A DNA stretch of 64,000 nucleotides, from the IMG/VR virus record IMGVR_UViG_3300027820_000030. One strand, given 5' to 3'. Positions 8,872 to 28,017 of the stretch are shown piece by piece. The DNA comes from an uncultured virus (IMG/VR IMGVR_UViG_3300027820_000030). Lineage: Duplodnaviria > Heunggongvirae > Uroviricota > Caudoviricetes. The position numbers were made by a program, and so were the translations under genes. The stretch's first letter is position 1; the number at the start of each line of letters is the position of its first letter. The notes beneath the pieces were generated by a model. It did not search any database and was not told the DNA's origin. It saw only the letters and a list, made by a program, of their open reading frames with translations.

Positions 8872-10995
8872 TTAACCCCCTATAAAGTTAAAGTCATACC
8901 CATCACCCGCAAGGGCTTTGAGCAGGTCATACACTTGCTGCCCTGATACCATATCAGAAGGGTTTAAGCCGCGAATATCAAATGTGCGGTTTGGTGCTTG
9001 AGCGCCAGCAGATGTCGTAGTCGTATTTGTTGCAACCTGTCCGCCTGAGTATGATTGCCCAGTGCCTGCGCTTCCGTAACTGGTGGACATAATACCCTTA
9101 ACCTGAGCGAAACTTGCAACAGACTGTGCAGCAGCAAGCGGTATATTCCATGGGTATGGTGTTGCGGCCATGGTTTTAGACACGGCGGCATAGCCATCAA
9201 CAACGGCTTGAGATACAGCAGCAGCCTTGCCAATCTCAAACATCTTACGGCTTTCGGTGTTCATCAGGCTTGATAGGTTGCCGAACATGCTAGAAAGCAT
9301 AGATAGTTTTGCTTGCTTTTCCTGTTCAGCCAGTAGTAACCTTGCCCTTTTACCTTTCTCCTCGAGGCTTGTTTTCTGTCCCTCGAAATTATTTATCGCG
9401 TTAAGCTCTGCAAGTCTAAGGTTATCAAGAAGTGCCGCTTTTTCCTCGCCACTCAATACTTCAGACTCTTTTATCCTTGCTGCCTCATCTTGAATTTGCA
9501 AAACTCTCGCATCCGCTTGAGTTTTTAGTGAGGCGATCCTTTTTGCCTCAGAGTTTCGTTGAGCTTCTTCAAGCTCAGTCATTGCGCCAGTTTCAACGGC
9601 TACCCTGTTGCGCGTGGCGGCGTTAAGTAGCTCTGACTCTACAGCTACGCTTGATGTTAATATCTGAACTCTGCGTCTTGCGGACTCTCTAGCAGCATCT
9701 ATTCTATCTTGCTGTTCGTCTGTAACTCCGCCCGTCTTTCCTTGAGCCGTATCAAGCTCAGCGCGAAGCTGCACAAGCTCCCTGCGCAATTCGGCTACAG
9801 ATGCTTGGTACTCTTTGTTTTTGACTGCGCGACGGCCTGTTTGATTTGAGCCTACCGATGTCGCTCTTGCAAGCGCCTCTTCGGTGGCTATTTGCGCCTC
9901 CTTCTCTGCAATTAGCTCTTTTATCTTAGCTATGCTTTTATCTTTCTCCCTTCCTTCTTCTGCCTCTACTTGCGCCAAAAATTCAAGTTGATTGGATGTA
10001 AGCTTTGCGTTTTCTTGAAGCTCTTTAAGCTTGTCAACTAAGTCTTTTGTTGAGTCAGACGAGTCCATCATGCTAGGCACAAAAGCCATAGCTAAAGACG
10101 CACCGATACCCACAATCGCACCCACCAATGGGGCGCCCAACACGATACCCAAGTCAGCGGCTTGTTGTGAGAATGCGAGAAGCGGTGAAGTGCCTGCCTG
10201 AACTTGTCCGACGAATTGCTGTATTTGAATGCCGGCTTGGCCTGAGTTTTTGCTTAACTTAACAAATCTGCCAGACATAACATCGGCGCTATCAGACATC
10301 CTTGCCATTGCTGTATTTACAGCGGTAACATTCGCTCTCGCCGAATTGGCTTGTTCAGCGTAGCGCTTTAATGCCGCTGTCGCCTCCACAAGCTCATTGC
10401 CATTCTTATCAATGACGCGGTTGTTGTCATCAACAGTATTTCCTAGGCTTATTTGTCTTGATATAGCATTAGCTAGAGTGCTATTTGCTTGCGATAGCTT
10501 GTCGTTTAACTGGTCAGCGCCCTCTCCTAAAAGTGAGTAGCCGCCAGCCGCCTCGCTTAGTGAGTCGGCTAGATTTGTTGCGACCGTGGTTTGCGTAGCA
10601 ATGACAGTAGATGCCTTCTGAGACCTTCCGGTCAAAGAGTCCATCATTGCAGCCATTTTTTCAGATCTATCTGAGGCGTTATTAAAAGCAAGCTTTAATG
10701 ATGCCAGCTCATTGGTAAGGCCTTTTGCCTTAACTCCGTAAGCGGTTAAAACGTTCCCGTTTTCATCAATTGACCTGCCAGCCAAAACCTGTTCGGCAGC
10801 AAACTCAGCCAAAGCATAACTTGCAGCATTGTATGACTCGCGTATTTTGTAAAAAGCAAGCGAGCTTTGTTTTGCAGATTTGTCTATCTGTTCAAACGAA
10901 CGGCTGGCTGATTCATTTGCCTGCTTGACTCTTTGAGCGGCTGATACGGCACCGGTATCGTCAACCTTTACATCAAAAGCGATATCGTTAGCCAT
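8872..10995 (-). CDS. Tail tape measure protein
   Basis: 707 aa, Ala-rich and helical, QIQQFVGQ..G..PLLAFSQQ motif, follows chaperones. Confidence 0.9.
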   Translation of the reverse strand: MANDIAFDVKVDDTGAVSAAQRVKQANESASRSFEQIDKSAKQSSLAFYKIRESYNAASYALAEFAAEQVLAGRSIDENGNVLTAYGVKAKGLTNELASLKLAFNNASDRSEKMAAMMDSLTGRSQKASTVIATQTTVATNLADSLSEAAGGYSLLGEGADQLNDKLSQANSTLANAISRQISLGNTVDDNNRVIDKNGNELVEATAALKRYAEQANSARANVTAVNTAMARMSDSADVMSGRFVKLSKNSGQAGIQIQQFVGQVQAGTSPLLAFSQQAADLGIVLGAPLVGAIVGIGASLAMAFVPSMMDSSDSTKDLVDKLKELQENAKLTSNQLEFLAQVEAEEGREKDKSIAKIKELIAEKEAQIATEEALARATSVGSNQTGRRAVKNKEYQASVAELRRELVQLRAELDTAQGKTGGVTDEQQDRIDAARESARRRVQILTSSVAVESELLNAATRNRVAVETGAMTELEEAQRNSEAKRIASLKTQADARVLQIQDEAARIKESEVLSGEEKAALLDNLRLAELNAINNFEGQKTSLEEKGKRARLLLAEQEKQAKLSMLSSMFGNLSSLMNTESRKMFEIGKAAAVSQAVVDGYAAVSKTMAATPYPWNIPLAAAQSVASFAQVKGIMSTSYGSAGTGQSYSGGQVATNTTTTSAGAQAPNRTFDIRGLNPSDMVSGQQVYDLLKALAGDGYDFNFIGG

Positions 10996-11218
10996 TATCT
11001 AAACCCTTTTCAAACTCTTCTAACTTTTTAGCCATTCTGCCAAGCTGTTTTTTCTCGAACATGCCAGCCATTTCTGGCGGCCTGTTCATGGCAATGTAAG
11101 TAAAAATATCTTTAGGCGAACACTGCCAGTACTCGTTAGGCTTCATACCATAGGCGACGCACTCACGCAGCAGATTAGGCCATAAGTCACTGAGGTCTAC
11201 TGCGCTTGTGTCTTTCCC
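10995..11218 (-). CDS. gpT-like -1 frameshift extension of tail chaperone
   Basis: GGGAAAG at 11218-11212; -1 frame is open to TAA 10997-10995 and contains GMKPNEYWQCSPKDI. Confidence 0.85.
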
Positions 11219-11538
11219 TCGTCTGACTGCTCACCTTCCCACGTTGGACAAAGGGCTGTCAGAATGTCGCTAAATGCACTTGTCACCTTGGCTGTATTAT
11301 CCAAGCTGTTGAGCGTATCCCAAATATCCATGGGGTCGACATCAACGCCGCCTTTAGCCAAGATAAGACTAACCAGCTTAGAGCCTTTGGCGTAGTCAGG
11401 AATCTCACCTTTAAAGATATCGCGAGCCAATAAAAAAGGGCTACCCATTTCGTCGGTGATGTCCTGCGCTAAATCAATAGTCACAGGAACCTCGACTTTA
11501 TTCTCACCCCAAGTCAGCTTGATTTTGCGATAGCTCAT
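11197..11538 (-). CDS. Tail assembly chaperone (gpG-like)
   Basis: Between tube and tape measure; ends with G GGA AAG slippery site. Confidence 0.85.
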   Translation of the reverse strand: MSYRKIKLTWGENKVEVPVTIDLAQDITDEMGSPFLLARDIFKGEIPDYAKGSKLVSLILAKGGVDVDPMDIWDTLNSLDNTAKVTSAFSDILTALCPTWEGEQSDEGKTQAQ

Positions 11539-11539
11539 A

Positions 11540-11956
11540 TTAAGCCACCGGGTCGGTAAATGTAGCCGCGCCAGTAGATGACATTGAAAGACTGAACTGC
11601 ATCAATTCACCAACTGAGCCTGAATCTTCAAAGCTGTCTAAGAAGAAATCGCCGCTAATCACTGAGCCGCTTGTTCCTGCGTCGTCAGCAGTACAGGTGA
11701 GCACTACAGCGTAAGCCTGTGAGCCTGTTTGCATGGCTGACTTTAGCAGTGAGTTGTTTCGTGTTACACCGCTGCCGGTGAAAGAGATAGATTTCTGAGT
11801 CGGCGTTGCATGAGCGTCTGCCCATTCGCCTGAAGTGTCGCCTGAAGTGTCGCCGCGTGAATTTGAGATTGACAGCGATTGTTCCACTAAAACAACGGCA
11901 GTACCGCCAATCGTTCCGGTCCACTCGCGTTTGTGAATACCTGCACCTACTGACAT
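11540..11956 (-). CDS. Major tail tube protein
   Basis: 138 aa, Ser/Thr/Gly-rich beta protein, ISGDFFLDSFE...FSLSMSSTG; position. Confidence 0.8.
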   Translation of the reverse strand: MSVGAGIHKREWTGTIGGTAVVLVEQSLSISNSRGDTSGDTSGEWADAHATPTQKSISFTGSGVTRNNSLLKSAMQTGSQAYAVVLTCTADDAGTSGSVISGDFFLDSFEDSGSVGELMQFSLSMSSTGAATFTDPVA

Positions 11957-11985
11957 GGTTTAATCCTCATGGTTGATTTATAGTC

Positions 11986-12029
11986 ATTCTAACTGGTCAA
12001 ACCACTAGACGCAATATTTATGGTATTGT
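11986..12029. promoter_or_regulatory. Divergent promoters sharing a TGGTCAAACCA box (11994-12004)
   Basis: Minus: TTGCGT-17-TAGAAT with the box in the spacer; plus: box-19-TATTGT. Confidence 0.7.
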
Positions 12030-12049
12030 GGGGTTTTTGGGAGGGAAAC

Positions 12050-12331
12050 ATGAGCGGAACATTTACATTGGTGTCGGAGCAATTACCGCCTGAGCATGTG
12101 CCATTAATTGGCATCTCATTGGGGCCAAAACTTCACACAGTAATATTTGATGGGTGCAGGTTTATCGACAGAGCTAGCGGTAATGAGTTTGCCCTAGGCT
12201 GCATTATTGCTTGGTATGATATGAGCAAGCACGAAAAAAGCGACTGGCCTATTGTCGCTGGAAGTTTGCACGTTTGCGTAAACGCGCTTTTCTCAGCATT
12301 GGCTAACACTCAACATTCACAGAAAACCTAA
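12050..12331 (+). CDS. Hypothetical protein, antisense island in tail operon
   Basis: GGAGG RBS, own promoter. Confidence 0.65.
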   Translation: MSGTFTLVSEQLPPEHVPLIGISLGPKLHTVIFDGCRFIDRASGNEFALGCIIAWYDMSKHEKSDWPIVAGSLHVCVNALFSALANTQHSQKT

Positions 12332-12701
12332 CCATCCAACGGCCTGAGCCTGTTCGCATGGGTCGGCCAACTGATTCGGCGGTGTTGACTACTTTCATGG
12401 TGCCGCTATCATACGACAGGTTGTTAAATAGGTACGTTTGGCAACTTGTCGCATCATTTACCAGAGTCAGCCAATCATCGGGTAATTCTGACACGTCACT
12501 AAACAGCGTCACTTGAATCAGGTAACGGGCGGTATCTGTGTTTGACTCTCTGCCGGTAGCGTTAACCAAACAGATTGATACGCTATCATTAGTAAACGGC
12601 AAAGCTGAATCATCCCAAAAAATAGCGTGATGATAGCCAGTAAGCACATTGTCTATTAGTGCAGTGCGGACAACTTCCGCTGGTAACGTGCTTGCGCTCA
12701 T
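12303..12701 (-). CDS. Tail terminator-like protein
   Basis: Size and position upstream of tail tube. Confidence 0.6.
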   Translation of the reverse strand: MSASTLPAEVVRTALIDNVLTGYHHAIFWDDSALPFTNDSVSICLVNATGRESNTDTARYLIQVTLFSDVSELPDDWLTLVNDATSCQTYLFNNLSYDSGTMKVVNTAESVGRPMRTGSGRWMVRFSVNVEC

Positions 12702-13108
12702 TTGCTCATTTCCTCTCTAAATACTTCGTTTAGGTTGATGCTTTGCAATCCGTGTTCAATCCAGCGTGATTTTGCGTTAGGGTTTGTTAGTGCGCCACGC
12801 TTACCGGATGCGTCAGGGCCACGCGGAGACCAGTTATCATTGTAGTACAGCCAACCGGCATACGCTGTCGTGTGGTCGCCGCCATAGCTTAATGTGACAG
12901 ACCATACACCACCCTCTCGAACAGGTGTGGTCACTTCCTTAGACTGCATCAAGTCGCCCGTATCCATCGGCACAAAGTAGTCAGAAGCTGTGCCAAGTTT
13001 CCACGCAGTCATGTAGCAGGCATCTTTAGCCTTAACCTGTAGCTCTTTGGTCCACGCATCCAGCTTGTTGTTAGCGTCCGTGTATGACTTACCTGGTTTG
13101 AATGGCAT
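12698..13108 (-). CDS. Neck / tail-completion protein (HK97 gp10 or minor-capsid-like)
   Basis: VPMDTGDLMQS motif, YA..LYY. Confidence 0.65.
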   Translation of the reverse strand: MPFKPGKSYTDANNKLDAWTKELQVKAKDACYMTAWKLGTASDYFVPMDTGDLMQSKEVTTPVREGGVWSVTLSYGGDHTTAYAGWLYYNDNWSPRGPDASGKRGALTNPNAKSRWIEHGLQSINLNEVFREEMSK

Positions 13109-13449
13109 TAGCCGGTCAACAACACATAATCTTTGCCGCCAACTAAAGGTGTAGCGGTTTCCACCTTAACAATCTTCTCAGCGCCTGACACCGGCGTTAA
13201 GTCTGCATGTTCGCCCACTGCAATCATATCGCCCTTCTGTGCACTGGCGTATTTGGTCACATAGGTTGTATTGGGCTGAAACTCTTCCTGTTCGTCATCA
13301 CGGCGAATAGCGCCACCATCCTTAAACCTAGCGTCAAACGTAACAGGCGCATCCCAGCCGCCACCGTATGGGCTTGACGACGTGTCAACAGTGGACTTGC
13401 GCCAAATGGTGACAGTCTCTTGTGGGAATTGGCCGATAATTGTGCTCAT
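13108..13449 (-). CDS. Head-closure protein
   Basis: TVTIWRK...YGG.WDAPVT pattern; position. Confidence 0.65.
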   Translation of the reverse strand: MSTIIGQFPQETVTIWRKSTVDTSSSPYGGGWDAPVTFDARFKDGGAIRRDDEQEEFQPNTTYVTKYASAQKGDMIAVGEHADLTPVSGAEKIVKVETATPLVGGKDYVLLTG

Positions 13450-13805
13450 CCGCGTTGCACCTGTAAAGGATACGCACCACCCTGACCAATAGCCGTTAAC
13501 ACACAGACTCCCGCGTCCATACCTTGAAGCAAATCAAGATATTGATTACCGGAGCCTTTGCTTGTGTCGAATGATACCGAGTCACCGGTAAAGCTAGACT
13601 GGCTGGAAAGTTGCCCGCCTGACTGCTGCACAATCATCGCCGCAGCGCCATACATCTTAGCTAATTTAGCTTGTGCGTCACTGTAGCCGCCTGTCGTGAT
13701 ACATGCGTCCGCTTCGTCCACCACATCAATAATCATTTGAATTGACGCATCTGACAGGCTGTTAGGCACAAAATCCCGAACCTCTGAAACTGTTATCGTA
13801 GCCAT
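13446..13805 (-). CDS. Head-tail adaptor
   Basis: Size, position, SQSSFTGDSVSF motif. Confidence 0.6.
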   Translation of the reverse strand: MATITVSEVRDFVPNSLSDASIQMIIDVVDEADACITTGGYSDAQAKLAKMYGAAAMIVQQSGGQLSSQSSFTGDSVSFDTSKGSGNQYLDLLQGMDAGVCVLTAIGQGGAYPLQVQRG

Positions 13806-13891
13806 TGTATTTTCACTCTACCGTTACGCACGTAGCGTACTGTTGTTATGCCCTGGTTACGCAGATATTCGCGCAACGCTTCCCCTTTAGG

Positions 13892-15487
13892 TTAATTCAA
13901 CTTTCTGCATATCGGACTATCAAAATAGACTGTAACATCCGTAGCACCCGTATGAGTGCGCAAAACAAACTGTGGTTGAATAGTGGTTTCGCCCCCTGAT
14001 AGTGTGGAGACTACCATAGATGTTAGTATTCCTGTTATTTCCTGCCCCGCTGGTATTTCATCGGTGTAGTGATCCTCGTTAACTGTCTCGAAAATGTCGT
14101 TACCAATTTTCACAGTTACATTTGACAGCCCACTGTGACCAGCCACAACTTTAAATCTGCAAAATGCCACATAAACATCGCCAGACACACCAGTAATTGA
14201 TATGTCCTGCCTCATGTTTGTAACCTGCGTTTGCGAGCCAACATTACCGGATATAGTCACCGCCTGAGACTCTGTGCCATCACCGAAAGCATTAGAAACC
14301 TTTGACACTGTTACAGTAGCCCCTGAAACGTTACTGCCAACCGTCCAACTGTCCGCAACATTACCGCTAGTAGAGCCGCCGTCTGTTCCGGATGTTCCGG
14401 TTAATTGCGGATTAACAAAAAGATTATCGGATATTAGACCTTGCTGGTCGTTGGCGTTCTTGGCCGCTTTCAGGATTGCAGCACCTTGAGCAGAGCCTAA
14501 AACAACCGCACCCCACAAACTTAAATGAGTCCCGTCTGTGGTTGTGTCGTCATCCGCTGTAAAGTTTTCACCTGACTCAACATCAATGATTACCCCGTCA
14601 ATATCCAGTCCGCGCAAAGCTGCATTGTATGAACCCCTTAACGCCTTTTGCTCATCGGTCCATGGAAATGTTGCTGAGTCTGACTTCTCAGGCACGCCGT
14701 GGATAACCACAACGACTGCGCCGTAGTAAAATAAATTTCTTACAATCTCTTTAATATTTGAAATGTATTGCTCAACAGTTTCATTGGCGCTTACATCGTT
14801 TGTCCCAGCCTGCAAAGACACAACATCAGCAATGTTTGCGCCTATGGTAGTTATTCTCGCCAATATGTCAGAGGTTGTATCGCCGCCAACGCCCTGATTA
14901 TACCCATCTAGAAACCTTAACTTAGCGCCTACAGCGAGCTGAACGCCGTAGATTCTACTGAATGCCGCCGTGCTTGTTTCGCCCTCAGTGATAGAGTCCC
15001 CGACAAACATAATTGAACTGCCTGCATCCACCGCATTTACTGAGCCTCTGGTTACAGCGTTGCTAAAACTGGTAAAGGATAGGCCGCCCGTGCTAACAAC
15101 ACTCGCCACACCCCCAACCAACTGCACCTCGTATGGGCCGTCGGAGGCTTGGACTTTGATAGACTCGTCAGCGTCGAATGAATAATTCTTACCAGCGAAA
15201 TAGCCCGATGCAGTAACATCTGCGATAGTGTCAGCGGTAAAATACTGATAGGTTCTGTCTGCCAGCTTAACCAAGCAATCACCATCTGAGCTAACGATAG
15301 CCACAAAGCTATTATTAGGACATAGGCAGTTAATTGTCGCGTTACCAGGATTATTAAGCGTTACCGATGACAGGTCAAAATAACCAGCCTGTGACACGGT
15401 GTAGCGGTCATCGTCGGTTACGTATTTGAAATTATTGCCGGTTGTGGAGCGCGGCATTTGCTCTAGGTTTTTCAGATTAAAGGCCAT
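13892..15487 (-). CDS. Structural protein: tandem YxTxD..V..GYF anchor domains + SGNH hydrolase + beta-sandwich
   Basis: FVGDSITEG, GVGGDTT, QAGTND, DGTH; paralog of 21919-23379. Confidence 0.75.
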   Translation of the reverse strand: MAFNLKNLEQMPRSTTGNNFKYVTDDDRYTVSQAGYFDLSSVTLNNPGNATINCLCPNNSFVAIVSSDGDCLVKLADRTYQYFTADTIADVTASGYFAGKNYSFDADESIKVQASDGPYEVQLVGGVASVVSTGGLSFTSFSNAVTRGSVNAVDAGSSIMFVGDSITEGETSTAAFSRIYGVQLAVGAKLRFLDGYNQGVGGDTTSDILARITTIGANIADVVSLQAGTNDVSANETVEQYISNIKEIVRNLFYYGAVVVVIHGVPEKSDSATFPWTDEQKALRGSYNAALRGLDIDGVIIDVESGENFTADDDTTTDGTHLSLWGAVVLGSAQGAAILKAAKNANDQQGLISDNLFVNPQLTGTSGTDGGSTSGNVADSWTVGSNVSGATVTVSKVSNAFGDGTESQAVTISGNVGSQTQVTNMRQDISITGVSGDVYVAFCRFKVVAGHSGLSNVTVKIGNDIFETVNEDHYTDEIPAGQEITGILTSMVVSTLSGGETTIQPQFVLRTHTGATDVTVYFDSPICRKLN

Positions 15488-16110
15488 TACTGCCGCTCCT
15501 CCCATTCGAGTTGATAAAGAAATTCACTATCTGTCGTGCCGTTGATATTCGTAAACACCAGCAAGAAAGTATTCCCAGCCGCCACGCCTGACGCATTACC
15601 GCTTGCTGTGTAGCTTGAAGCCGCCCGACTACCGCCGCCCGATGTTGGCACAAGGTAGGACGTGCCTGTGCGCTTGGGTGCAGTTGTGCTGAATGCGGTT
15701 GCAATGCGTTTCTCAATCGTCACACCGCTTGTAGGGTGCGAATCCAAACCGCTAACAGATAGGTCGTTGTTAATCGGTGAAAGTTTGGTGCTTGTTACAT
15801 CTGCCCACGAGCCGCCACTGATAGCCTCACTGCCGGTGAACGGGTAAACAATGTATTTGCGCCCACCAGCCCAGCCATTAATCAGGCGCAACTGTAGTTT
15901 TAGCGGGTAAACAGTTGTAAACCGATAGATGAGAATATCAGTATCAGCAATCGCATCTGCGCCGCTACAGTCGTCAAAGAACTTGAACTGTAAGTTAGCC
16001 TCAAAGCTTGATTGCTGATTATCTACAGCAAAGCGCGCAGTGTTTTTGTTTTGCGTGGTCAGCAGAAAGTCTGCCCACGCATTGGGAATCAATCTATTCA
16101 GAATCGCCAT
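15487..16110 (-). CDS. Hypothetical virion protein
   Basis: ORF in head operon with translational coupling. Confidence 0.6.
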   Translation of the reverse strand: MAILNRLIPNAWADFLLTTQNKNTARFAVDNQQSSFEANLQFKFFDDCSGADAIADTDILIYRFTTVYPLKLQLRLINGWAGGRKYIVYPFTGSEAISGGSWADVTSTKLSPINNDLSVSGLDSHPTSGVTIEKRIATAFSTTAPKRTGTSYLVPTSGGGSRAASSYTASGNASGVAAGNTFLLVFTNINGTTDSEFLYQLEWEERQ

Positions 16111-16264
16111 TGTTCGCCACCTTCTTACGTCTCGTGCGCTTAGGCTTTGGTGCTTCTTCTGCCTCTTTAGGATTGAATTTAGCGTCGATGATTTTGTAAC
16201 CCTGAGCACGTAACTCTTTCTTGCGTTCAGGCGTTACAGGGTGAGGCTCGTAAATGACTTTCAT
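16094..16264 (-). CDS. Small conserved post-capsid protein (MKVIYEPHPVTPERK...)
   Basis: Motif I recognise as typically following this capsid family. Confidence 0.6.
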   Translation of the reverse strand: MKVIYEPHPVTPERKKELRAQGYKIIDAKFNPKEAEEAPKPKRTRRKKVANNGDSE

Positions 16265-16275
16265 AGCTGTCTCAC

Positions 16276-16311
16276 TGGTTAGACCACTTGTTACGTACAG
16301 TTTACTATAAT
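16276..16311 (+). promoter_or_regulatory. TGGTTAGACCA box + 19 bp + TATAAT
   Basis: Perfect -10, conserved spacing. Confidence 0.75.
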
Positions 16312-16343
16312 GGCTAGAGTTTAGGCAAATTTGGAGATTAACA

Positions 16344-17493
16344 ATGATTGGAAAGGACGTGACTGTGACGATTGGCGACAAGGAGCTTGATTTTAATTTA
16401 AGCTCAGAGGTTATAGAGCCTATTGAATTTGAGTCGCAAGTAGCACAAGTAGGAAAGGGCTTCTCTTTTAACGCTGAAAGCACCGTCGAATTTTCTGGTA
16501 GCGCTGAGTTTTCTGGAGTTGTAACCTATGATGACGGCATGGTAATGAAATTAAAAGGAATGAAAAGCACCGGCCCAAATCATTATTTTTCTTACAACTT
16601 CAAATGCGGGAGCATTTCAGTTAAGCGATACATGAAAACCAAATCAAAGCAGCCGCGAACGATTGCTGTTTGGCGTGAAATTTAATTAGGCAAATTTGGA
16701 GAAGGGAATGGAAAAGAAGAGAAAAATGTTCAAAAAGAAAAAAATAAACATAAAGGTCGCCGAAGCTCAATCGCGCTACTTTTTTGCATTTGCTGTCGCT
16801 GACGCGATGTTCAAAAGCGAAGTATGTGCAGAGGCCGTTGCTCAAGGGGCGTTTTTTAGAACACTAGGCTACAAAGTGAGGGTTAAGTGATGTTTACATA
16901 CATAGCAGTAAACGGCGCGGTAGTCGAAAATAATTACGGTGGCGGTTATGGCGGTGAGTGGATAAGCCCAATCGGCGGGAGGGGCGGCTCGTCCAACTTC
17001 GATGATGGGCAAAATCTTAACGGGGGATCGTGGAAGGCAATAGATGTTCCGTACTGGGAAAGGCGCGTCAAGCAGATTGGTAAGGGCAAGCGGCACTATT
17101 TTGCCCTTAATGGCTGGTGGCATTACATTGAGATTGATGACGCTCTACCGCCGCTAGTTAGTTGGTACATTGGGAGGGTAAGTGATGATTAAATTAAACG
17201 CTATAGCAGCCATTGAACAATTCGAGAAATTCTGCGCTAGAGGTAGAGGTCACCTTGTAACAATAAAGAGGCCTGATGGAGAAAGTATCTGCCATCGCAC
17301 TAATATTTTTATTATGACATTGAGTTGCAATTACAAAGGGAAGTATTCCGATGGCTCAATTTTTGGAAGGGTTGAATTTAATGCAGACTCAGAAAAGGGT
17401 GAAATAAATAAAATATTGCACGAAACATTCTCTGACATGAATAAAAGGATGAATGAATTTGACACGCCTGAAAAGAAGGATGTGTTCACATAA
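16344..17493 (+). other. Antisense island of four small hypothetical ORFs (16344-16685, ~16708-16890, 16887-17192, 17182-17493)
   Basis: Coupled ORFs with RBSs, own promoter and terminator. Confidence 0.65.
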
Positions 17494-17495
17494 CA

Positions 17496-17525
17496 AAAAG
17501 CCCCGCATAAGCAGGGCTTCTTTAT
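17496..17525. terminator. Probable bidirectional intrinsic terminator
   Basis: AAAAAGCCCCGCATAAGCAGGGCTTCTTT between convergent genes. Confidence 0.7.
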
Positions 17526-17536
17526 CTTAACTAACC

Positions 17537-18496
17537 TTATGACTGGTCGCCAACAGTAAGCACCCCAGCAGTATGCTTGATGTCTGTTGCGACTTTATCC
17601 CAGTTAGTGCCGGTTGCAATTTCCGCATCGGTCGGAGATTTGCCGCCGTTGGTTTCATCCCACGCATAGCCCTTCAAGCCAAGACCAAACGTGTAATCAA
17701 CCTGCATTGTAGTTTCAATGCGCTGGTTGCCGTTAGTGGTCTCGATGTTGCTGATTACGTCGCCTGCATCATGAACTACTGCCGCACCTTCAACCAGTGA
17801 AAGCACTTTGTAGTCAGTGGTCGATACAGTCAGTGCTGGCGCATCGGTAACAACAACCATCTTGCCTAAGATATCCACAACGCGCACGTTTTGCGCTTGG
17901 AACAGCTGAGGCGTGTTAGTCAGGTTCTGACCAACCAAGTTGTGGTAAGTCGCACCATTCATAATCTGACAAACCAGATTGCCTGAGTGGTCACCAAACA
18001 GCGCATGAGCAGCGTTCATTGCTGAGTAGGTGACAGGGGCGGTCGCTGAAACGTCATTGGTAGCCGATGCCTGATTCTCGATAGCTGCAACCAGTGCCGC
18101 AATAGCGGTGTTTAACTGGTCTTGCATCATAGCTTCAGCAAAGTTACGGCTGGCAACTTCGATACCGCGTGCGGTAGGTTGGCGCAACCAAGTAAGCTGT
18201 GAAGGCTCATAACGAATCGGGCCAAAGCCGCCAGCGATTTTAACGCTTGAGTGCTTCAACTGAGTCAGGTCAGTCGCAGACGCAGAAGAGTTAGACGCGT
18301 AACGGTCAACACGACGCTGCGCAGAGTGAATAGCCGCAAAGAATGATTCTTGCAGGAAGTCACCGTCGAAACCTTCTGTAGTCAAACGGATTGCACCGGC
18401 AGACGCTTGGTTAAACTTATCAACCATCTGTGCCAGAGTTTCAATTGTGGCAGGCATGATATATTCGTTAAATACCTGCATATCTGATAAAGCCAT
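17537..18496 (-). CDS. Major capsid protein
   Basis: MALSDMQVFNEYIMPATIETLAQ... family; GLKGYAWD..NGGKSPTDA..ATGTNWDKVATDIKHTAGV. Confidence 0.9.
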   Translation of the reverse strand: MALSDMQVFNEYIMPATIETLAQMVDKFNQASAGAIRLTTEGFDGDFLQESFFAAIHSAQRRVDRYASNSSASATDLTQLKHSSVKIAGGFGPIRYEPSQLTWLRQPTARGIEVASRNFAEAMMQDQLNTAIAALVAAIENQASATNDVSATAPVTYSAMNAAHALFGDHSGNLVCQIMNGATYHNLVGQNLTNTPQLFQAQNVRVVDILGKMVVVTDAPALTVSTTDYKVLSLVEGAAVVHDAGDVISNIETTNGNQRIETTMQVDYTFGLGLKGYAWDETNGGKSPTDAEIATGTNWDKVATDIKHTAGVLTVGDQS

Positions 18497-18504
18497 AAAT
18501 CACC

Positions 18505-19215
18505 TCAATTTGGTAAGTTAAATTTACTTGCAAAATAGGCAGCGCGACTATTCTTGTCGCCGCCAATGTCGGCCTTTGAGGTGGCACGGCCCCCGTTACC
18601 TGGCCCATTTAAAAGCCCGCCGCCGGTTGTAACGACAGTGGTTTTTAGTAATGGTGCAAAGCTGGCATCCTGTTTGATTTCCGCTTTGAACTCTTCCAAA
18701 CTCAATGATGTGGCACGGCCTTCATCATCAAGAAAAACTACTTTTCCGGTTTCCGCGTTAACGTCAATCCGGTCGGAGATAAGGCGCTTAAACGCTCTAC
18801 CGCCTGTGTCTGTTGCCAATTCTGCCGCGAGGTCAGAAACTAACTCATTTCGTTTACCGGCTTTAATCTGGCCGGTCAATTCGTCGAGCTTTCCTGTTAA
18901 CTCATTAATCCGCGATTCGCTGCGGGATTTAAGGTCGTCAATCTGCTCTTGATACTGCTTTTCGATTTCGGCAGCATCACCTTTTGTTCTTGCCTTCTCC
19001 ATAGCTTCCGCTTTAGCCTTTTCGATAGCTTCCAGCTTCTGCGCTTCAAACTCACTTAATTGAGTCTGCGCTTGCTTCCACTTGCTGTCTAAATCGTTCG
19101 CGGTCTGCTTAACTTTCAGCATACCCTTATGGCTAAAACCTTCACCGTCCTCCACATATTGCTCTTTTGCGAAATCCGGTAATTCCTCGTATTGCTCTTT
19201 GGTTAGTTCTGACAT
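18505..19215 (-). CDS. Capsid scaffolding protein
   Basis: Coiled-coil with Gly-rich C-terminus, upstream of MCP. Confidence 0.8.
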   Translation of the reverse strand: MSELTKEQYEELPDFAKEQYVEDGEGFSHKGMLKVKQTANDLDSKWKQAQTQLSEFEAQKLEAIEKAKAEAMEKARTKGDAAEIEKQYQEQIDDLKSRSESRINELTGKLDELTGQIKAGKRNELVSDLAAELATDTGGRAFKRLISDRIDVNAETGKVVFLDDEGRATSLSLEEFKAEIKQDASFAPLLKTTVVTTGGGLLNGPGNGGRATSKADIGGDKNSRAAYFASKFNLPN

Positions 19216-19224
19216 TGGCACGGC

Positions 19225-20769
19225 CTATGTTTCTTGAGGCTCCACGGGAGTCTCTTCTTCTGGGATATTTTGTACCGATTGGTTTACGTTGTCAACTGGT
19301 CGGGCCACCGGTGCGTCTGCGGCTTCCATTTCCAATTCTTCAACGATTACGTCTATCTCTTCGCTAGTCCACCCACCTTTCTCAAGTTGGCGCATGAATT
19401 CTTTCTGGCTGATTTCGCGGTCAATGCGCAATTCACGCAACACGCGAACCTCATCGACAGTCAGTCGTGGCGTCGCAAAGTCGCGAGGCAAGTCAATGGA
19501 TACTTCGCCACTACTGCCTTCAAACACCATGCAATATTCGATGACGCGAATAAATGCACTTTCGATACTGGTCGCCAATGATTCAAGCATAGCATTCTGG
19601 TCGCTGGCATTAATGTCTGCCTCAGTCGCTGTCATGGTGTCAACGTCAGACTTAACTGCCCCACCCATCTCTGATATTTCTTTTTTGTTGTGCTCGAAAT
19701 ACCACTGGAAATCCGACATTTCAGCCGAAGCACTTTTAACGTCTACTGTCACGCCATCGGGGAGATTGTTTACTGAACCTGGACCTGTGGCGACGTATGC
19801 ACGGCCATTGTTTGACTGCTTAAATAACTCAGCATCGCCCTCTTTCCACCCTTCAGTGTAGGTGGTAGGCGCTAAGTTACGCTGAGTCTCTTTGTAAGCA
19901 GCAGACACGCGATAGCGGTGCAAGGTCTTTAAGCAGACAGGGTAAATGTAGCCCATGCCGCACGGCAGCTTATGGTCCTTGATTTTCTCAAGTGACACGA
20001 ATTCAGCAGGGATATACTTTAATGGTGCGCCACCAACCATCACATAGGAGCGTTCACCCTTCTGCTGTTTCTTGTTGCTGTTGTAAATGATTTTCTGCTG
20101 GTAGTAATTGCCTTCGTCATCGAGCGCCAGGATCAAGTAAGATTCAATGTCGTCATGACTCATTGTCTCTTCGTCGAATTCCGTGCCGCGCTCAAGCAAT
20201 GCGAGAAACGCCAACTGCGTCACGCCGTTACGCTTGCCGAATGCCCAGTTAACCACGTTCTTTCGCGAGTAGACTTTAATCTTTGCGCGAGGGTTCGCTG
20301 CGTCTGATTGCTCTTTGCTAACGTCGGTTAGGTCAACATCACCCAATCCGTTATAGTCAGCAGCCACGACACACCAGTTATCAACCAGTGAATCCGATGC
20401 GGCGACCTCCATCAACTCGTAAATCGAACAGCCGTTGCCGTCAGCATCTTCTTCAAGGTAATCAAGCGGAATGTCTGTTGCCGTATCATCTATGCGCATC
20501 TTGCCAAGCAGTGAGCGTAGTGTCTTGGCTGGGTAATCATCAAATTCAGCGCCAGCGATAAATTCACGATAGCGGATAATCGCGTCATCTGTATCAGTGT
20601 CAACCTGTGACGGGTGCGGTAGGTAGGTGTAAGTCATGGACTTAACCCTGTCCTCACCTTGCAAACAATCCTCAGCAACTGACATTTGGAGCGCTGCGAA
20701 TGGATAGTCTGGGTGAGATTCAATGCTCACCACTACCTTTGTTCTAATGCCATTGCTGATAATGTACAT
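19225..20769 (-). CDS. Portal protein (DUF4055-like)
   Basis: 514 aa, YLPHPSQ..YREFIAGAEF; position. Confidence 0.8.
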   Translation of the reverse strand: MYIISNGIRTKVVVSIESHPDYPFAALQMSVAEDCLQGEDRVKSMTYTYLPHPSQVDTDTDDAIIRYREFIAGAEFDDYPAKTLRSLLGKMRIDDTATDIPLDYLEEDADGNGCSIYELMEVAASDSLVDNWCVVAADYNGLGDVDLTDVSKEQSDAANPRAKIKVYSRKNVVNWAFGKRNGVTQLAFLALLERGTEFDEETMSHDDIESYLILALDDEGNYYQQKIIYNSNKKQQKGERSYVMVGGAPLKYIPAEFVSLEKIKDHKLPCGMGYIYPVCLKTLHRYRVSAAYKETQRNLAPTTYTEGWKEGDAELFKQSNNGRAYVATGPGSVNNLPDGVTVDVKSASAEMSDFQWYFEHNKKEISEMGGAVKSDVDTMTATEADINASDQNAMLESLATSIESAFIRVIEYCMVFEGSSGEVSIDLPRDFATPRLTVDEVRVLRELRIDREISQKEFMRQLEKGGWTSEEIDVIVEELEMEAADAPVARPVDNVNQSVQNIPEEETPVEPQET

Positions 20770-20795
20770 AATTAACCTTTACCTGTTTTGCTCCA

Positions 20796-20824
20796 ATTTT
20801 AGCCACTGGTCTAACCACTTACAA
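20796..20824 (-). promoter_or_regulatory. Sigma70-like portal promoter TTGTAA-17-TAAAAT with box (20807-20817) in the spacer
   Basis: Read directly from the minus strand. Confidence 0.7.
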
Positions 20825-21919
20825 GCCCAATCGCTTAAATACTGTCGATTCCTCTTGCTCAAGCTCGTTTAATGTGATTGTGCGGCCTGTCATATCGGTG
20901 AATTTGGATAGCGATAATTTGCCATCGAGAAACAGTTTGGCCCTTGTGGTACCAAGCGATGATTCAACAAACCATCTAGGCTGTCTGCGTAACCATGCCT
21001 CGTGACTGGTGTCACTTCTAACCGTTGTCGGGTCGAATGCGTCTTTGTCACGCTTGCCTCTGTACTTTGGCTTACCATCCGTGCTGGCTTCTTTCTTCTC
21101 GAATGCTTCTTTTGCTGCCGGTCCTGATTTGCCGCCTATGGCAACCTGTTGGCCGGTTAACTCGAATCCTTCTGGACCGTAGATTAGTGTTGAGCGGCAG
21201 TTTGGGTGCAACGGAGGAATCGGTAACTTCGGGTCGTCAGCCTTAAATCGTTTCTTTGAGTTAGTCCGACAAATTAAACTAGTCCTGTTATCCCACACGG
21301 CGACAAATATCGCCTCCTGATAGTATTTAGGATGCGCAGATACGTTAGCCCGCCTTGCCTGCTGTACGTAATGCGTGAAAGCTGTTCTGGCCAATGACTC
21401 AGCGCGGGTTTTCAGTGTACCGTCAAACTCAGCACGTATATTCTTTAGCACCTGGTTGACTGTCTCGGCGCGTGAATAGCCCTGTCGAACCATTGACATA
21501 ATGCGTTGATTTCTTCCAGCGTTATTGCCAGTAATGAATTCATCCCAGAAACCAGCCTGCTTTGACTGCTCCATGACAATCATTTGCTCACCGATGAACG
21601 ATAGAATCTCATTCTTTGCCGGTGGCGTTAGCTCAGTGTTGCGCAGCATGTAACGCACCTCATACAATGCCGCCTCTTGCATATCCTTGGTGTAATCTGC
21701 CCAGCCTGAATTCAACTCGATAATGCGTTGTATGCGCTTCTCGATAGTCTCAAGCTGCTTTGGTGTGCGTGGCAAGCCGCCGTCGATGATGAGCAGCCTG
21801 ATTAGCCGGTACGTTTCCTCTAACCCTGGATAAACAGACGCGTTGATATACCCTGAATTTAACCTATCAAGGTATACCTCGTGCATTAATTGTGCGTCTA
21901 GGTTTATTGTGATTGTCAT
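20819..21919 (-). CDS. Head morphogenesis protein (SPP1 gp7 / MuF family)
   Basis: DNRTSLICR and PPLHPNCRS motifs. Confidence 0.9.
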   Translation of the reverse strand: MTITINLDAQLMHEVYLDRLNSGYINASVYPGLEETYRLIRLLIIDGGLPRTPKQLETIEKRIQRIIELNSGWADYTKDMQEAALYEVRYMLRNTELTPPAKNEILSFIGEQMIVMEQSKQAGFWDEFITGNNAGRNQRIMSMVRQGYSRAETVNQVLKNIRAEFDGTLKTRAESLARTAFTHYVQQARRANVSAHPKYYQEAIFVAVWDNRTSLICRTNSKKRFKADDPKLPIPPLHPNCRSTLIYGPEGFELTGQQVAIGGKSGPAAKEAFEKKEASTDGKPKYRGKRDKDAFDPTTVRSDTSHEAWLRRQPRWFVESSLGTTRAKLFLDGKLSLSKFTDMTGRTITLNELEQEESTVFKRLGL

Positions 21920-23379
21920 TAAAGCCCGTAATGAGTCAGGTTGAACATCTGCGCCTGAGCGATATTAATATCTACATCAAATGTGCCAGCGTCAGCGCTG
22001 ATTGCAAATCGCAAGCTTGAGACACCTTCAGGAACTTCAAGCTCAACACTAAGTGTTGTTGCGTCTACGCTTACCGCTGCCTGTCTCATCATGTATACGC
22101 GGTCAACTGAATTGACGGTAACATCGTATTGCACAAAAACACTAAGCTCACACGAGCCGCTGTTTATGGTATTACTAAACCGCATCACACACAGGTATGT
22201 GTCGCCCTCGGTAACGTTCCAACGGCTAGAGTTAATAAATAACTGGCTATTAACCCAGTTAACTTGCCATGTGTTACCTATTCCAAGCGACGTTTCTGCC
22301 AGTGACTGAGTATTTTGATTTCCGTTAGTGGCCCAATTATTCGGCAGCCCTGCGCCGTATGTTCCAGTTGTAAAGCACCCATTCGGATTCAATATAACAC
22401 TGTCAATTGTGTAATCGTCTATCCTTGGTAGTGGCGTATAGTACCTATTATTTAGGTAGTCATCTGCCAATTTGTAACCGGCTGTTTGTTCTGCTGCTGG
22501 GTCTGGATGGGTTCCATCCGATGATGCGCCACTAACCCATGCGCCGGTCGATGGGTCGGTTAACTCGTCCCATATGCCGAAGCACTTAATTCCTTTCTTC
22601 CTAGCTGTTACATAGTCGTATAAGTTAGCCTCAAAAACATACTCGCTACGTGCAGCTGTATCATGCGGAGGAGCCATAATCATAAGAGGCTCTGAACCTA
22701 TACCGGAAACATAATCCAAACATGTAGCAATGTTATCCCTATGCTCTATAAGCGTAACGCCTGCCGCATAATCATTGGTCGCCTCCATAACAGTTACGAG
22801 CGTGCCGTCTATATCGGACAGCCTTGCAATCATCTGGTTTGTGTTATTACCTCCAACGCCAGCATTAGTTTTAAAAACCACTGCGCCGCCACTGTTTCTA
22901 GCGAACCATGTGCCAAAATTATTGATAGCCTCACTGATTGAGTTGCCAAACACGCATAGCTGTTCCTGCCCACTGTTCAGTTTTGTTCTGACCAAACTAG
23001 CAACCCCGCCACTCGACTTAACTTCGTATTCGCCGTCTGCGGCCTGAACCTTGATAGAATCAATTGACGTAAATGAAACGCCTTTGCCCGAGAAATAACC
23101 AGAAGCCGTTACAGTTGCGATTGAATCAGGCGTTGAGTAATTCCAGATTCTAGGCGTTGCGTTATCGCACTTAGCCATTGCGGTAAGGATATCGCCGTCA
23201 GTGGTGATATATGCCAAGACGCTGCCGTTAGAGCAAACGCAATTGACAGTCGATAATTCTGAACTGAAAGTGTAGCCGGTGAAATAGGTGTGTTGTGATA
23301 CTTCTTCGACAGTGTCGTCTGTTACGTATCTAAATTTAACCGCCGAGATTCTGTCAACGTTCAATGCCTGGAATGCCAT
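21919..23379 (-). CDS. Structural protein: tandem anchor domains + SGNH hydrolase
   Basis: FGNSIS, GVGGNNT, EATND, DGTHP. Confidence 0.75.
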   Translation of the reverse strand: MAFQALNVDRISAVKFRYVTDDTVEEVSQHTYFTGYTFSSELSTVNCVCSNGSVLAYITTDGDILTAMAKCDNATPRIWNYSTPDSIATVTASGYFSGKGVSFTSIDSIKVQAADGEYEVKSSGGVASLVRTKLNSGQEQLCVFGNSISEAINNFGTWFARNSGGAVVFKTNAGVGGNNTNQMIARLSDIDGTLVTVMEATNDYAAGVTLIEHRDNIATCLDYVSGIGSEPLMIMAPPHDTAARSEYVFEANLYDYVTARKKGIKCFGIWDELTDPSTGAWVSGASSDGTHPDPAAEQTAGYKLADDYLNNRYYTPLPRIDDYTIDSVILNPNGCFTTGTYGAGLPNNWATNGNQNTQSLAETSLGIGNTWQVNWVNSQLFINSSRWNVTEGDTYLCVMRFSNTINSGSCELSVFVQYDVTVNSVDRVYMMRQAAVSVDATTLSVELEVPEGVSSLRFAISADAGTFDVDINIAQAQMFNLTHYGL

Positions 23380-23436
23380 GGTAAAATTCCTCTTATGCTA
23401 TTGGTTAAGTTTAAAGCAATTGTCATGGCAAGTAAA

Positions 23437-24675
23437 TTAACCAAACCTCGGTGCGGCTGCTGGTTTTCTGTGCGTCATCAAATGCTCGCAAGCGTAACGC
23501 AGTGAATCAATAAAATGGTTAAACTCATCTACCGGCTTGTTAATCACTTTGCCGTCCTTATCGACCTGCCAGCAGTAGTTATTAAACTCTACCATAAATT
23601 CAACCAAATGCGCATTGACGATTATTTCAAACTCACTGAGGAAGTCTATGCCAGCGTTAATGGAGTCTTTTCCTTTCATTGCGCCACGAATGCGGATGCC
23701 TTTAGCATCAAGGTAATCGATTGACTTAGGCTCTGAGCTATCAGCCGTCGTCATGTGGCGGTGACAGTTCATTTCCTTCATCTTGCTGGCAATGGCCGAA
23801 TTCTGCATACCTTTCTCGTAGAAACCGTCGTACACGTAAATTTTCTTACCCTTGACATCAATGTAAGTCTGGTTAAATGCTGACGGGTCGTTAGTGTAAC
23901 CAAAGTCAAGGCCTTGGACACAGTCAAGCCCTTTAACCTCAGATTCTTTAATCAGGCGAGCCGTGGCGTTATTAAACACAAGCCCTTCTGCTGTACCCCA
24001 ATTGCCAAGCGCATATATGTTGTAATAGCGCGGATTGGTCTTTTTCTTGTTCTCCATAACCATCTTGTATTCATCGTCAATGAATGCGTTATCAAGATAT
24101 GTCGTGTGAAGTGTGAAAACGCCATCTATTGGGTCATCGAAGAATACGCGCTTAATCCAGTGCTGCTCGCTGATAGGATTAAACGTCAGAATAATTTGCT
24201 TGATGTATTTAGTTTCGCCACGCAAACGCAAGTCAAGCTGCTCGAAGTCCTCTTGCGTTAGCTCCGTGGCCTCTTCGCACCATATGCCGGTAACGCCTTC
24301 GATTGACTTTAGTTTTTCAACGTCGTCTAGGCCGCTGAACATTATCTGCGAGCCGTTCTTTTTGTAGGTAATGGTTTTATCAGTCAGGTTTACGTCAAAC
24401 TCTTCTGACAAACCCCATCGGCTTATGATGTTGCGTATGAGCGTAAACACAGACCGTTTTATGGTTCGGTCAACTTTACGTATTACGAGAAAGTTATGCT
24501 TGCAGTCTGATTCTTTGAGAAGGCGATAAACGATTTTGCGTGCGACGATATGTGATTTGCCTGACCCTGCGCCACCCCATAGGATTTGGTAGCGCGACTG
24601 GTCAGTGAATGCCGGTACAAACTTAGGTGACTTCTCCTTTACGTGCTTCCTGAATTTGGCTAGGTCTATTACCAC
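23437..24675 (-). CDS. terL: Terminase large subunit, PBSX / SPP1 type
   Basis: GGAGSGKS Walker A, WCEEATE, GLDFGYTNDPS, NHFIDSLRYA. Confidence 0.95.
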   Translation of the reverse strand: MVIDLAKFRKHVKEKSPKFVPAFTDQSRYQILWGGAGSGKSHIVARKIVYRLLKESDCKHNFLVIRKVDRTIKRSVFTLIRNIISRWGLSEEFDVNLTDKTITYKKNGSQIMFSGLDDVEKLKSIEGVTGIWCEEATELTQEDFEQLDLRLRGETKYIKQIILTFNPISEQHWIKRVFFDDPIDGVFTLHTTYLDNAFIDDEYKMVMENKKKTNPRYYNIYALGNWGTAEGLVFNNATARLIKESEVKGLDCVQGLDFGYTNDPSAFNQTYIDVKGKKIYVYDGFYEKGMQNSAIASKMKEMNCHRHMTTADSSEPKSIDYLDAKGIRIRGAMKGKDSINAGIDFLSEFEIIVNAHLVEFMVEFNNYCWQVDKDGKVINKPVDEFNHFIDSLRYACEHLMTHRKPAAAPRFG

Positions 24676-25106
24676 TCATTTTCACCACTATCTATCACGC
24701 GTTCGGTTACTTCTTTCTTGTCCGCTAACCCTAAATCACGTGCAATAATATTCGGATTAAGCAGGTCTGCCGATGCGCCCTCAAACTTCTGAGCGCGGAT
24801 AATTGACTCTACACGCGTTACGACGTCAGAAAAATCTTCGTCCTTACGCCATGAAAACCACGTCTGTTCGGTTATATCAAGAAATATACAAAGCCCCCCA
24901 ATGGTCATTGCTCGCATCTTTGCCATTGGCTCATGTGAAGCTACACCTTGGAAGAATGAAACCTTATCCTCGTATAACGGGTTTTCTTCTACCCACTGGA
25001 AATATTCTTGGCAAGCTTCCCATAAAGCTTCATGACTAGCGAACAGCTTGTCTCTACCGTGCTTTGTACGTGCTTTCCAGAATTGGTTTCCTTTCGGGGC
25101 TGGCAT
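24669..25106 (-). CDS. terS: Terminase small subunit, P22 gp3-like
   Basis: APKGNQFW..RTKHGR..LWEACQEYFQW..LLNPNIIARDLGL. Confidence 0.9.
   Translation of the reverse strand: MPAPKGNQFWKARTKHGRDKLFASHEALWEACQEYFQWVEENPLYEDKVSFFQGVASHEPMAKMRAMTIGGLCIFLDITEQTWFSWRKDEDFSDVVTRVESIIRAQKFEGASADLLNPNIIARDLGLADKKEVTERVIDSGENEW
24821..24839 (-). other. Candidate pac site
   Basis: GAAGATTTTTCTGACGTCG resembles the P22 pac core inside gene 3 (recalled as GAAGATTTATCTGAAGTCG). Confidence 0.45.
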
Positions 25107-25154
25107 ATCAATCACCGTTAATTAATCAGTCTTAAATATACCACATGATAGGAT

Positions 25155-25181
25155 AAAAAAAAGCCCTGCGGATAACAGGGC
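25155..25181 (-). terminator. Intrinsic terminator upstream of terS
   Basis: GCCCCTGTTATCCGCAGGGC followed by a long T run on the minus strand. Confidence 0.65.
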
Positions 25182-25420
25182 AACTGGAGGGGAAGAAACA
25201 AAATGATTTAATCACTCACACCATAGCGGGTTAGTTGTGTGGTGTCAATCATTAACCACTAGCGGCTGATAACTAACACCTACCGGTAACTGCATAAAAT
25301 CCAGCTCGTATTCGCTATACATCCATTGTTGAAATGCGTATTCGGCTTCCTGGAGGTTTCGTGCGTCGAATATGTCTACCGAATACTCCTTACCGCTGAT
25401 TGTTGTGGATGCGCGGTAGT

Positions 25421-26269
25421 TCATAACAGGCCGCTCTTGAATATGTGAGAAACTACATTAACCGTCCACCCGTTTCCAGAGAGAATTTCAGCTTGACGCT
25501 GGCTTACGCAGTCAAAATAATCGCCTGGAGCGCCAACTATGAGAGCCAATGACCTTTTACCCGGCTTAAAATACCTCCCATTTGCATGGATAAAATTCCC
25601 ATTCCAGCTAGCGTACTGCCTTGCTGTCATAGTTATCCCTTTTGAGCCTCCCTTTGCGATTTTTGAATATTTCTTGGCCTCCTGGAATTCGCTATTCTTA
25701 TTCCACCACTCCACCCACCCTTCAGACATTTCAACATAATCAACAATATAGCTTAGAAATGATGATTTATCTTTGTAGAACTTCCCGCCGTAATCCCAAT
25801 TGAACCAGTAATACCTAGGTCTTTCACATGGGCTGTAGTCTGACGAATTAATAAAAACAGGCTCAACACCTAATTTATCACTTATAACCGCAAGGTATTC
25901 TTTTTTCATCTTCACGTTTTCAAGCATGAATTTAATGTCAGGATTAACGCTTTTGATGTGATTCAGAATATCAACGTAAACGAAAAACAACTTACTGCGT
26001 GGGTCGTCAAAGGCCAGCTGCTTGCCTGCAAAGCTAAACCCCTGGCACGGTGAGCCACCAATTAACAAATCAATCGAGGCCCAATCAATATCCCATTCGC
26101 GCCACTTGGTAACATCGCCCAGCTGAACCGTGTCAGGATAATTCGCCTGAGTTACTTTAATCGCGTATTTATCCACCTCTGCCGCATAATAAACATCTGG
26201 CTTAATTCCAATTCTATTCAGCGCAATCTGGCCGCATGATAAGCCGTCAAACAAACTTAATACCTTCAC
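25421..26269 (-). CDS. DNA cytosine-C5 methyltransferase
   Basis: VLSLFDG, GGSPCQGFS, ENV, RPRYYW, GNGW motifs. Confidence 0.92.
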   Translation of the reverse strand: MKVLSLFDGLSCGQIALNRIGIKPDVYYAAEVDKYAIKVTQANYPDTVQLGDVTKWREWDIDWASIDLLIGGSPCQGFSFAGKQLAFDDPRSKLFFVYVDILNHIKSVNPDIKFMLENVKMKKEYLAVISDKLGVEPVFINSSDYSPCERPRYYWFNWDYGGKFYKDKSSFLSYIVDYVEMSEGWVEWWNKNSEFQEAKKYSKIAKGGSKGITMTARQYASWNGNFIHANGRYFKPGKRSLALIVGAPGDYFDCVSQRQAEILSGNGWTVNVVSHIFKSGLL

Positions 26270-26432
26270 GACAACAACCCCCATCCAAGCATAAATAGCC
26301 ACACAGCCCACCCGAATCCCATCGCAACAACATTACCTTTCGTCTGCTCGATATATTCACCCCATGCAAGTTCAAGCGATGCCCATGCTATACCGGCGAA
26401 TGTGACTACCATGTATGTGTAATAGAATTCGT

Positions 26433-27980: not shown

Positions 27981-28016
27981 ATTATAACGGGTTAATTTTG
28001 TTTTGTGGTTTGACCA
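27981..28016 (-). promoter_or_regulatory. TGGTCAAACCA box + 19 bp + TATAAT
   Basis: Perfect -10, conserved spacing. Confidence 0.8.
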
Positions 28017-28017
28017 G

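Follow-up and report, generated by a model that had tools for sequence, protein, structure and literature searches.

Short palindromes at the gene junctions of an uncultured virus record (IMG/VR IMGVR_UViG_3300027820_000030) probably serve as operators for a dimer of the host GntR-family regulator FadR, which would activate early and antisense accessory promoters and block the structural promoters whose spacers the boxes cover. We analysed bases 1-64000 of this 75,425-base record, hereafter called the window. Seen in the sequence are the identity of the boxes, two geometries in which they stand to promoters, and a strand bias; the same patterns recur in divergent phages, and complete genomes without a FadR-like gene also carry boxes. 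Bases 1-191 are repeated at 39909-40099 (plus strand), with the sequence diverging after the repeat, and the record reads as two phages joined via this common 191-base early segment: a siphovirus-like phage A (1-39908) and a P22-like phage B, with early modules in common. Because the window holds two joined phages, statements at the genome level must be split at about position 39908. The structural region of phage A lies on the minus strand and comprises terminase, head morphogenesis, portal, scaffold, capsid, head-tail, tail tube and tape measure genes.

The box core, TGGT-N3-ACCA, occurs nine times in the window against 0.88 expected, and none of 100 shuffles reaches nine. Eight of the nine cores are found at gene junctions and carry FadR-like flanks; the core at 52417 is a poor match in coding sequence. 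The box fits the published FadR consensus, a 17-bp palindrome given as aaCTGGTCnGACC(T/A)Gtt (PMC9329746), from which the window boxes deviate at about 3 of 16 positions. Perfectly palindromic cores occur in four relatives (L142, G103, G106 and G109). A PdhR-type reading of the box was set aside because the flanks fit FadR.

In the first of the two geometries, a -10 hexamer lies exactly 16 nucleotides beyond the 17-bp box. This arrangement holds for five of the seven phage A boxes (background 1.7%, P 3e-8) and for both exact boxes of phage B. Examples are the elements at 588-626 in the early region of phage A (plus strand), its phage B copy at 40578-40616 (plus strand), an element with TATAAT at 27981-28019 in the early/middle region (minus strand), where the flanking sequence of relatives departs immediately 5' of the box, and one at 38240-38278 (plus strand) that precedes a pentapeptide-repeat gene. 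In the second geometry, the box occupies the spacer of a structural-strand promoter. Two of the seven phage A boxes are placed in this way, with P of about 1e-4 for criteria fitted post hoc to those two sites; under looser criteria and an AT-rich background, three of seven lie in a spacer (P 0.002-0.02, also post hoc).

Both geometries meet at the tail-tube junction. The first-pass annotation had reported a minus-strand promoter TTGCGT-17-TAGAAT at 12014-11986 that carries the palindrome within its 17-bp spacer, and reading of the sequence confirmed it, with the box core at 11994-12004. This sigma70-like promoter (8 of 12 consensus positions) would serve the tail tube gene (11540-11956, minus strand; PF06199), the tail chaperone and the tape measure. 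The complete box (11991-12007) is common to two promoters: the minus-strand -10 begins on its last base, and 16 nucleotides past the box on the plus strand is an extended -10, TG-n-TATTGT (12021-12029), the predicted FadR-activated promoter of an antisense cassette. The extended -10 ends 20 nucleotides before the ATG of a plus-strand open reading frame (ORF) of 93 amino acids without a family match (12050-12331). This accessory gene is optional, being missing in L003/L006 and in one contig of run X13, and it is part of a longer cassette in relative G002. The cassettes at 12050 and 16344 are both missing in other strains that retain the flanks.

The portal promoter, TTGTAA-17-TAAAAT at 20824-20796 on the minus strand (9 of 12), was likewise confirmed with a palindrome in its 17-nucleotide spacer (box 20804-20820, core 20807-20817). 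The head-morphogenesis gene upstream has its stop codon within the -35 overlap of this promoter, and the box ends 3 nucleotides short of the -10. No -10 is present at 16 nucleotides from this box on either strand, the only candidate being a weak AATACT at 17 nucleotides. The promoter, which precedes the portal gene (19225-20769, minus strand; identified by tblastn to annotated portals), is retained beside differing portal alleles and differing upstream alleles. Four other runs contain five variable positions in 20730-20900 and none in 20796-20824, too few for a test of selection, and close IMG/VR relatives (97-100% identical) are too similar for such a test.

The best-scoring structural promoter had been overlooked in the first-pass annotation. 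It lies inside the 3' end of the portal gene (TTGACA-17-CAAAAT, 19267-19295, minus strand; 10 of 12), before the scaffold (19221-18505) and major capsid (18496-17537) genes, which together span 17537-19221 on the minus strand and match PF20036 and, weakly, PF06810. A degenerate FadR-type box (19294-19310) abuts its -35, scoring 13.4 bits with our position weight matrix (PWM) and 16.0 in G002; the PWM was trained partly on boxes of the window and of G002, G004 and L142. This promoter stands in a block in which ~41 of 43 bases are identical to G002, in a portal gene that is otherwise about 55-60% identical. G002 also keeps the spacer sites at 11994 and 20807 base for base, including the whole 11986-12014 promoter, beside a tail tube that is 55% identical. 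Because the conserved blocks are mosaic linkers, the sites kept in G002 may have been hitch-hiking. A further box (16273-16289) heads the antisense island 16344-17493, with a plus-strand TATAAT (16306-16311) 16 nucleotides away and no structural-strand spacer promoter at this site.

We surveyed 10 phage records with 42 distinct boxes; sites that share a genome are not independent observations, and several of the records had come to light through one of the two geometries (G002, G004, G106 and G109 through the activator pattern). Boxes lie in structural-strand promoter spacers in 13 of 42 cases and in spacers on the other strand in none. Conversely, a -10 at 16-17 nucleotides is found on the opposite strand for 26 of the 42 boxes and on the structural strand for 5. 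Nine of the 13 spacer boxes show both geometries at once, and eight are in the register seen at 11994, where the -10 begins on the last base of the box. Once the two window sites and two seed sites are set aside, 9 of the other 38 boxes are in spacers (P 6e-9). The evidence for the overlap, modest in the window by itself, becomes strong with these relatives. The earlier proposal that one box serves a plus-strand promoter and the minus-strand tail promoter is therefore upheld as a recurring geometry. Strong spacer sites are present in phage A, G002 (the same sites), G102, G103, L142, G106 and G109; phage B has a degenerate one only. The two-way module of 11994 is seen again, in different sequence, in G102, G103 and G106, and each of five antisense islands in G103 begins at such a module, before portal, head-tail and tail genes. 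L142, which was found by portal homology alone (41%), has TTGACA-18-TATACT (11 of 12) with a perfect palindrome in the spacer, before its scaffold gene. In L160, two boxes flank the scaffold promoter, one of them at +1.

A pattern scan of viral contigs that was blind to gene identity found about 200 loci, 120 of which constitute the matches listed. Among these, 11 loci have valid sigma70 geometry, and all four that carry a strong box (two distinct promoter sequences, three distinct genes) precede head-scaffold genes. The other seven are weak-boxed (<=10.6 bits) and were dropped from the scaffold count; the four of them that we examined had no match to head or tail reference proteins. Ten matches of the first spacer pattern that lie outside the family have weak -35s or single boxes and were also rejected. 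A scan of genome contigs for the activator pattern returned 16 scattered matches, about the number expected by chance by our estimate, the two in Rheinheimera and Shewanella being uninformative. When the promoter elements were compared with cultured phages by short-DNA BLAST, the matches were all weak (E 2-6). Among cultured phages, Alteromonas phage PB15 has nine PWM matches against 1-3 in shuffles, several of the fabA type, and PB15 and Alteromonas phage P24 carry the asymmetric form of the box seen at host fabA promoters.

The positions of the boxes can be compared with those of host FadR sites. FadR is described as repressing when it overlaps the -10/+1 region and activating from upstream of -35 (PMC9329746). 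The placement of the repressed type is approached at 11994 and seven other sites, where the box fills the spacer and touches the first base of the -10. In 31 phage promoters of activator geometry, the distance from box to -10 is 16 nucleotides at 13 sites and 17 at 18, and none of the 31 has a -35 of 4/6 or better.

Several observations weigh against operators with opposite effects on the two strands, and they lend themselves to other explanations. FadR, or a protein of its subfamily, might only repress, such that boxed promoters on both strands shut and open together and the whole infection is gated on lipid state. We regard this as unlikely, although it stays alive because 18 of the 31 activator-geometry promoters carry an extended -10 (TG-n) and could work unaided, with FadR repressing them; moreover, the -35 position falls within the reach of a box centred near -37. 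The spacing is also 1-2 nucleotides off that of fabA, where it is 18 rather than 16-17 in E. coli; among 30 fabA loci 16 bear a box, nine of these at 18 nucleotides, and a distance of 17 appears only at a weak PWM call, E. coli fabH, with iclR at 20. However, 13 of the 31 phage promoters have neither TG-n nor a -35, the sharp peak at 16-17 nucleotides (25 of 42) is what contact by an activator would produce, and overlapping divergent promoters that opened together would compete. It is less likely still that the overlap with structural promoters is a by-product, in which the FadR-activated 5' promoter of an antisense cassette abuts the next structural gene and the structural promoter merely restores transcription, hardly regulated. 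All boxes in the structural region of phage A do face antisense, the linker persists through gain and loss of cassettes, the boxes at 16276 and at G002 20238 have no spacer promoter, and in Pseudoalteromonas phage H105/1 the same junction between head gene and portal is likewise occupied by an antisense island. This explanation is a poor fit for spacer boxes without an opposite-strand -10 (A 20807, G102 15497, G103 2125/L142 and G109 1690), for the preferred register in which the -10 of 8 of 13 starts on the last box base, or for the two boxes that flank the L160 scaffold promoter. Finally, the two minus-strand promoters of the first-pass annotation are middling when taken alone, matching only 8/12 and 9/12; a consensus scan lists that at 20824-20796 and not that at 12014-11986, and its yield in 10500-26500, 17 promoter-like sites, is no higher than the 23.9 obtained with shuffled sequence. 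That they are chance matches in AT-rich junction DNA nevertheless strains belief, given the spacer-placement statistics, the scaffold loci of the blind scan, and the strand bias of the 42 boxes. The complete phage G004, which has activator-type boxes and no strong box on structural promoters, also speaks against the dual role, as does the lack of box enrichment in three complete relatives of the L142 capsid (G016-G018), in Vibrio phage 1.151.O and in H105/1; the latter result limits the box system to some lineages.

The boxes might instead be read by a protein of the phage, making the switch phage-encoded. Phage A encodes a lone FadR-like winged helix-turn-helix (wHTH) domain of 89 amino acids (337-606, plus strand), whose top PDB matches are FadR (E 9e-6), and phage B encodes a lone GntR/FadR-like domain of 80 amino acids (59192-59434, plus strand; PF00392 above cut-off), antisense between portal and scaffold. 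Eight such short FadR-like proteins were found, including one in P24, and the genes in phage B and P24 have a box-like site in the spacer of their own promoter. In phage B, that promoter (plus strand, TTGACA-16-GATAAT) and a scaffold/capsid promoter (minus strand, TTGTCA-18-TAGAAT) overlap within 59127-59161 and have one degenerate box (59133-59149) in common. These proteins are not full-length FadR, however, lacking the C-terminal acyl-CoA-binding domain. Seven DNA-contact residues are listed for FadR: R35, T44, R45, T46, T47, R49 and H65 (PMC4259882). By eye from the alignment, the phage A copy keeps three (R45, R49 and H65) and has lost R35, T44, T46 and T47 to replacement, and the phage B copy keeps R35, R45, T46 and R49. 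A six-frame profile search found no FadR-like wHTH gene in complete G004, with four strong boxes, or in complete G106, with 16 PWM matches, and none was found in the partial records G102, G103 and G109. Because these two complete genomes are boxed without such a gene, host FadR is the likely reader, and the suggestion in the first-pass annotation that a phage wHTH might fill this role is very improbable. A single-sequence fold of the phage B protein was of low confidence (predicted local distance difference test score, pLDDT, 58.8) and was not used.

If host FadR reads the boxes as an activator and a repressor, the following course can be proposed. On entry, host FadR free of acyl-CoA would bind the boxes. 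Where a box lies 16-17 nucleotides upstream of a -10 without a -35, FadR, at about -37, would recruit sigma70 polymerase as it does at fab genes. At junctions like 11994, the same dimer would fill the spacer of the overlapping promoter on the opposite strand and exclude polymerase from it, and transcription of the antisense cassette would further damp read-through into structural genes. As the genome replicates, the 8-16 boxes per genome might titrate FadR, or long-chain acyl-CoA might strip it off, oleoyl-CoA being described as releasing FadR at E. coli sites (PMC3460868). Antisense promoters would then shut down, allowing the internal promoters of portal, scaffold/capsid and tail to open. 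The outcome would be a boost of virion genes on top of box-free late promoters rather than an absolute gate, with the phage mini-FadR as an optional modifier. Virus assembly would thereby likely be tied to the lipid state of the host.

The first-pass annotation had held that box occupancy keeps virion genes off, which is too strong. The late region opens, ahead of the small terminase gene, with a box-free segment (25135-25248, minus strand) that contains a strong promoter (TTGACA-17-TATGGT, 25248-25220) followed by a terminator (25181-25163), but also an extended -10 past that terminator (25145-25135). A terminator scan found no strong terminator between these promoters and the portal gene, a further point against tight control, and only one after the major capsid gene (17493-17520, minus strand). 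Because box-free promoters head the late region and no strong terminator precedes portal, we argue that FadR would dim the internal structural promoters rather than switch them off completely; its gating would weigh most on genes that follow the capsid terminator or an antisense island. The absence of a Q antiterminator or phage sigma factor, also claimed earlier, holds for the 69 ORFs compared with Pfam and the 25 compared with PHROGs, which are part of the ORF set, small unassigned ORFs being left. We advance more tentatively, and with some doubt, the broader proposal that in a group of marine gammaproteobacterial phages the early-to-late switch depends on host FadR alone, acting through shared two-way operators, with titration or fatty acyl-CoA flipping the switch and captured FadR domains of some members tuning or jamming it. 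If this is true, exogenous fatty acids would alter the course of infection.

The middle/late activators MotA of T4 and Mor and C of Mu are phage-encoded, and their boxes stand in for the -35, with constant spacing to a sigma70 -10. Unlike those systems, complete box-bearing genomes here have no matching activator gene. In many small lytic phages the promoters are all sigma70-like and no late regulator is known; for one phage group, the arrangement described here would let a host factor and its release supply the timing. Bacillus phage phi29 has its own late activator. It resembles the present phages in being a virulent phage with several promoter-associated sites for a host master regulator, Spo0A, which steers the lytic cycle (PMC9437464). 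Spo0A suspends that cycle, whereas in the present phages the host factor would promote early gene expression, and losing it would increase that of late genes. Sites for CtrA in alphaproteobacterial phages and for LexA in GIL01-type phages likewise reflect a host factor co-opted via enriched sites, and both activation and repression are reported for CtrA (PMC9437464). Their signals are the cell cycle or DNA damage, not fatty acids, and the available text of that paper describes no two-way module at structural junctions.

The closest parallel is the FadR regulon of E. coli and other gammaproteobacteria, which shares the 17-bp palindrome and a dual role that depends on position (PMC9329746, PMC4537474, PMC4259882), and whose release by long-chain acyl-CoA would apply to the phage boxes. 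It differs in that the present sites are on phage genomes, with 16-17 nucleotides between box and -10 against 18 at fabA, that two overlapping divergent promoters share a single phage site whose predicted effects on them are opposite, and that the predicted repressing sites lie in the spacer touching the -10, not over +1. Enriched, promoter-associated sites of a host-regulator type are found across related phages, as co-option of a host factor entails. A literature search, covering the main text of mostly open papers, found neither FadR sites nor FadR-like genes reported for phages; in the phage papers examined, 'FadR' was mostly the name of an author. Phage co-option of host regulators is known; the fatty-acid signal and the two-way operator design appear to be new. 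They would add fatty-acid status to the host signals read by phages, would account for the presence of antisense accessory cassettes inside structural operons, and would provide a natural, compact two-way switch.

A box at 30944-30960 is of uncertain role. It lies 19-20 nucleotides (30 in G002) upstream of the -35 of a conserved minus-strand sigma70 promoter with a 16-nucleotide spacer and is a possible upstream activation site, but is also coding; it is broken in L110 and phage B, and was not counted as regulatory. In four host fabA loci (L166, L169, L186 and L191), the fabA site is immediately preceded on its 5' side by another FadR-like box; in three of the four, this additional box shares the ACCAC right half of the phage boxes. 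The PB15 (L017) matches, at 6008, 6808, 9470, 13361, 16579, 17845, 27283 and 28043, are mostly at gene junctions, with -10 distances less uniform than in the window. A lone strong box with a -10 at 16 nucleotides in L023/L210 (G105, a provirus) might point to a host taxon. Members of the lone-domain family also occur at L001 11035-11259 and at L017 28542-28808; the latter frame, in PB15, lacks an annotation and seems to have a disrupted start.

The nearest cultured relatives are phages of Vibrio, Alteromonas, Pseudoalteromonas and Oceanospirillum (30-75% identity), and near-identical DNA is present in marine sediment metagenome runs; for 11500-21400 no RNA run was listed, which counts neither for nor against transcription. 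Three strain-variable genes of the GDSL/SGNH family lie in the structural region (3354-5186, 13892-15505 and 21919-23379). The pentapeptide-repeat gene (38286-38993) directly behind its box promoter differs in repeat number among relatives, and a Cro-like gene is found at 36362-36189. Past the primase gene, an AT-rich non-coding segment (31080-31450) with many GTTAC/GTAAC repeats is a likely replication origin. The late-region head has a promoter, short leader and strong terminator in both phages (25248-25135, and 66535-66644 of the record), and the leader could yield a small RNA of ~55 nucleotides or need antitermination.

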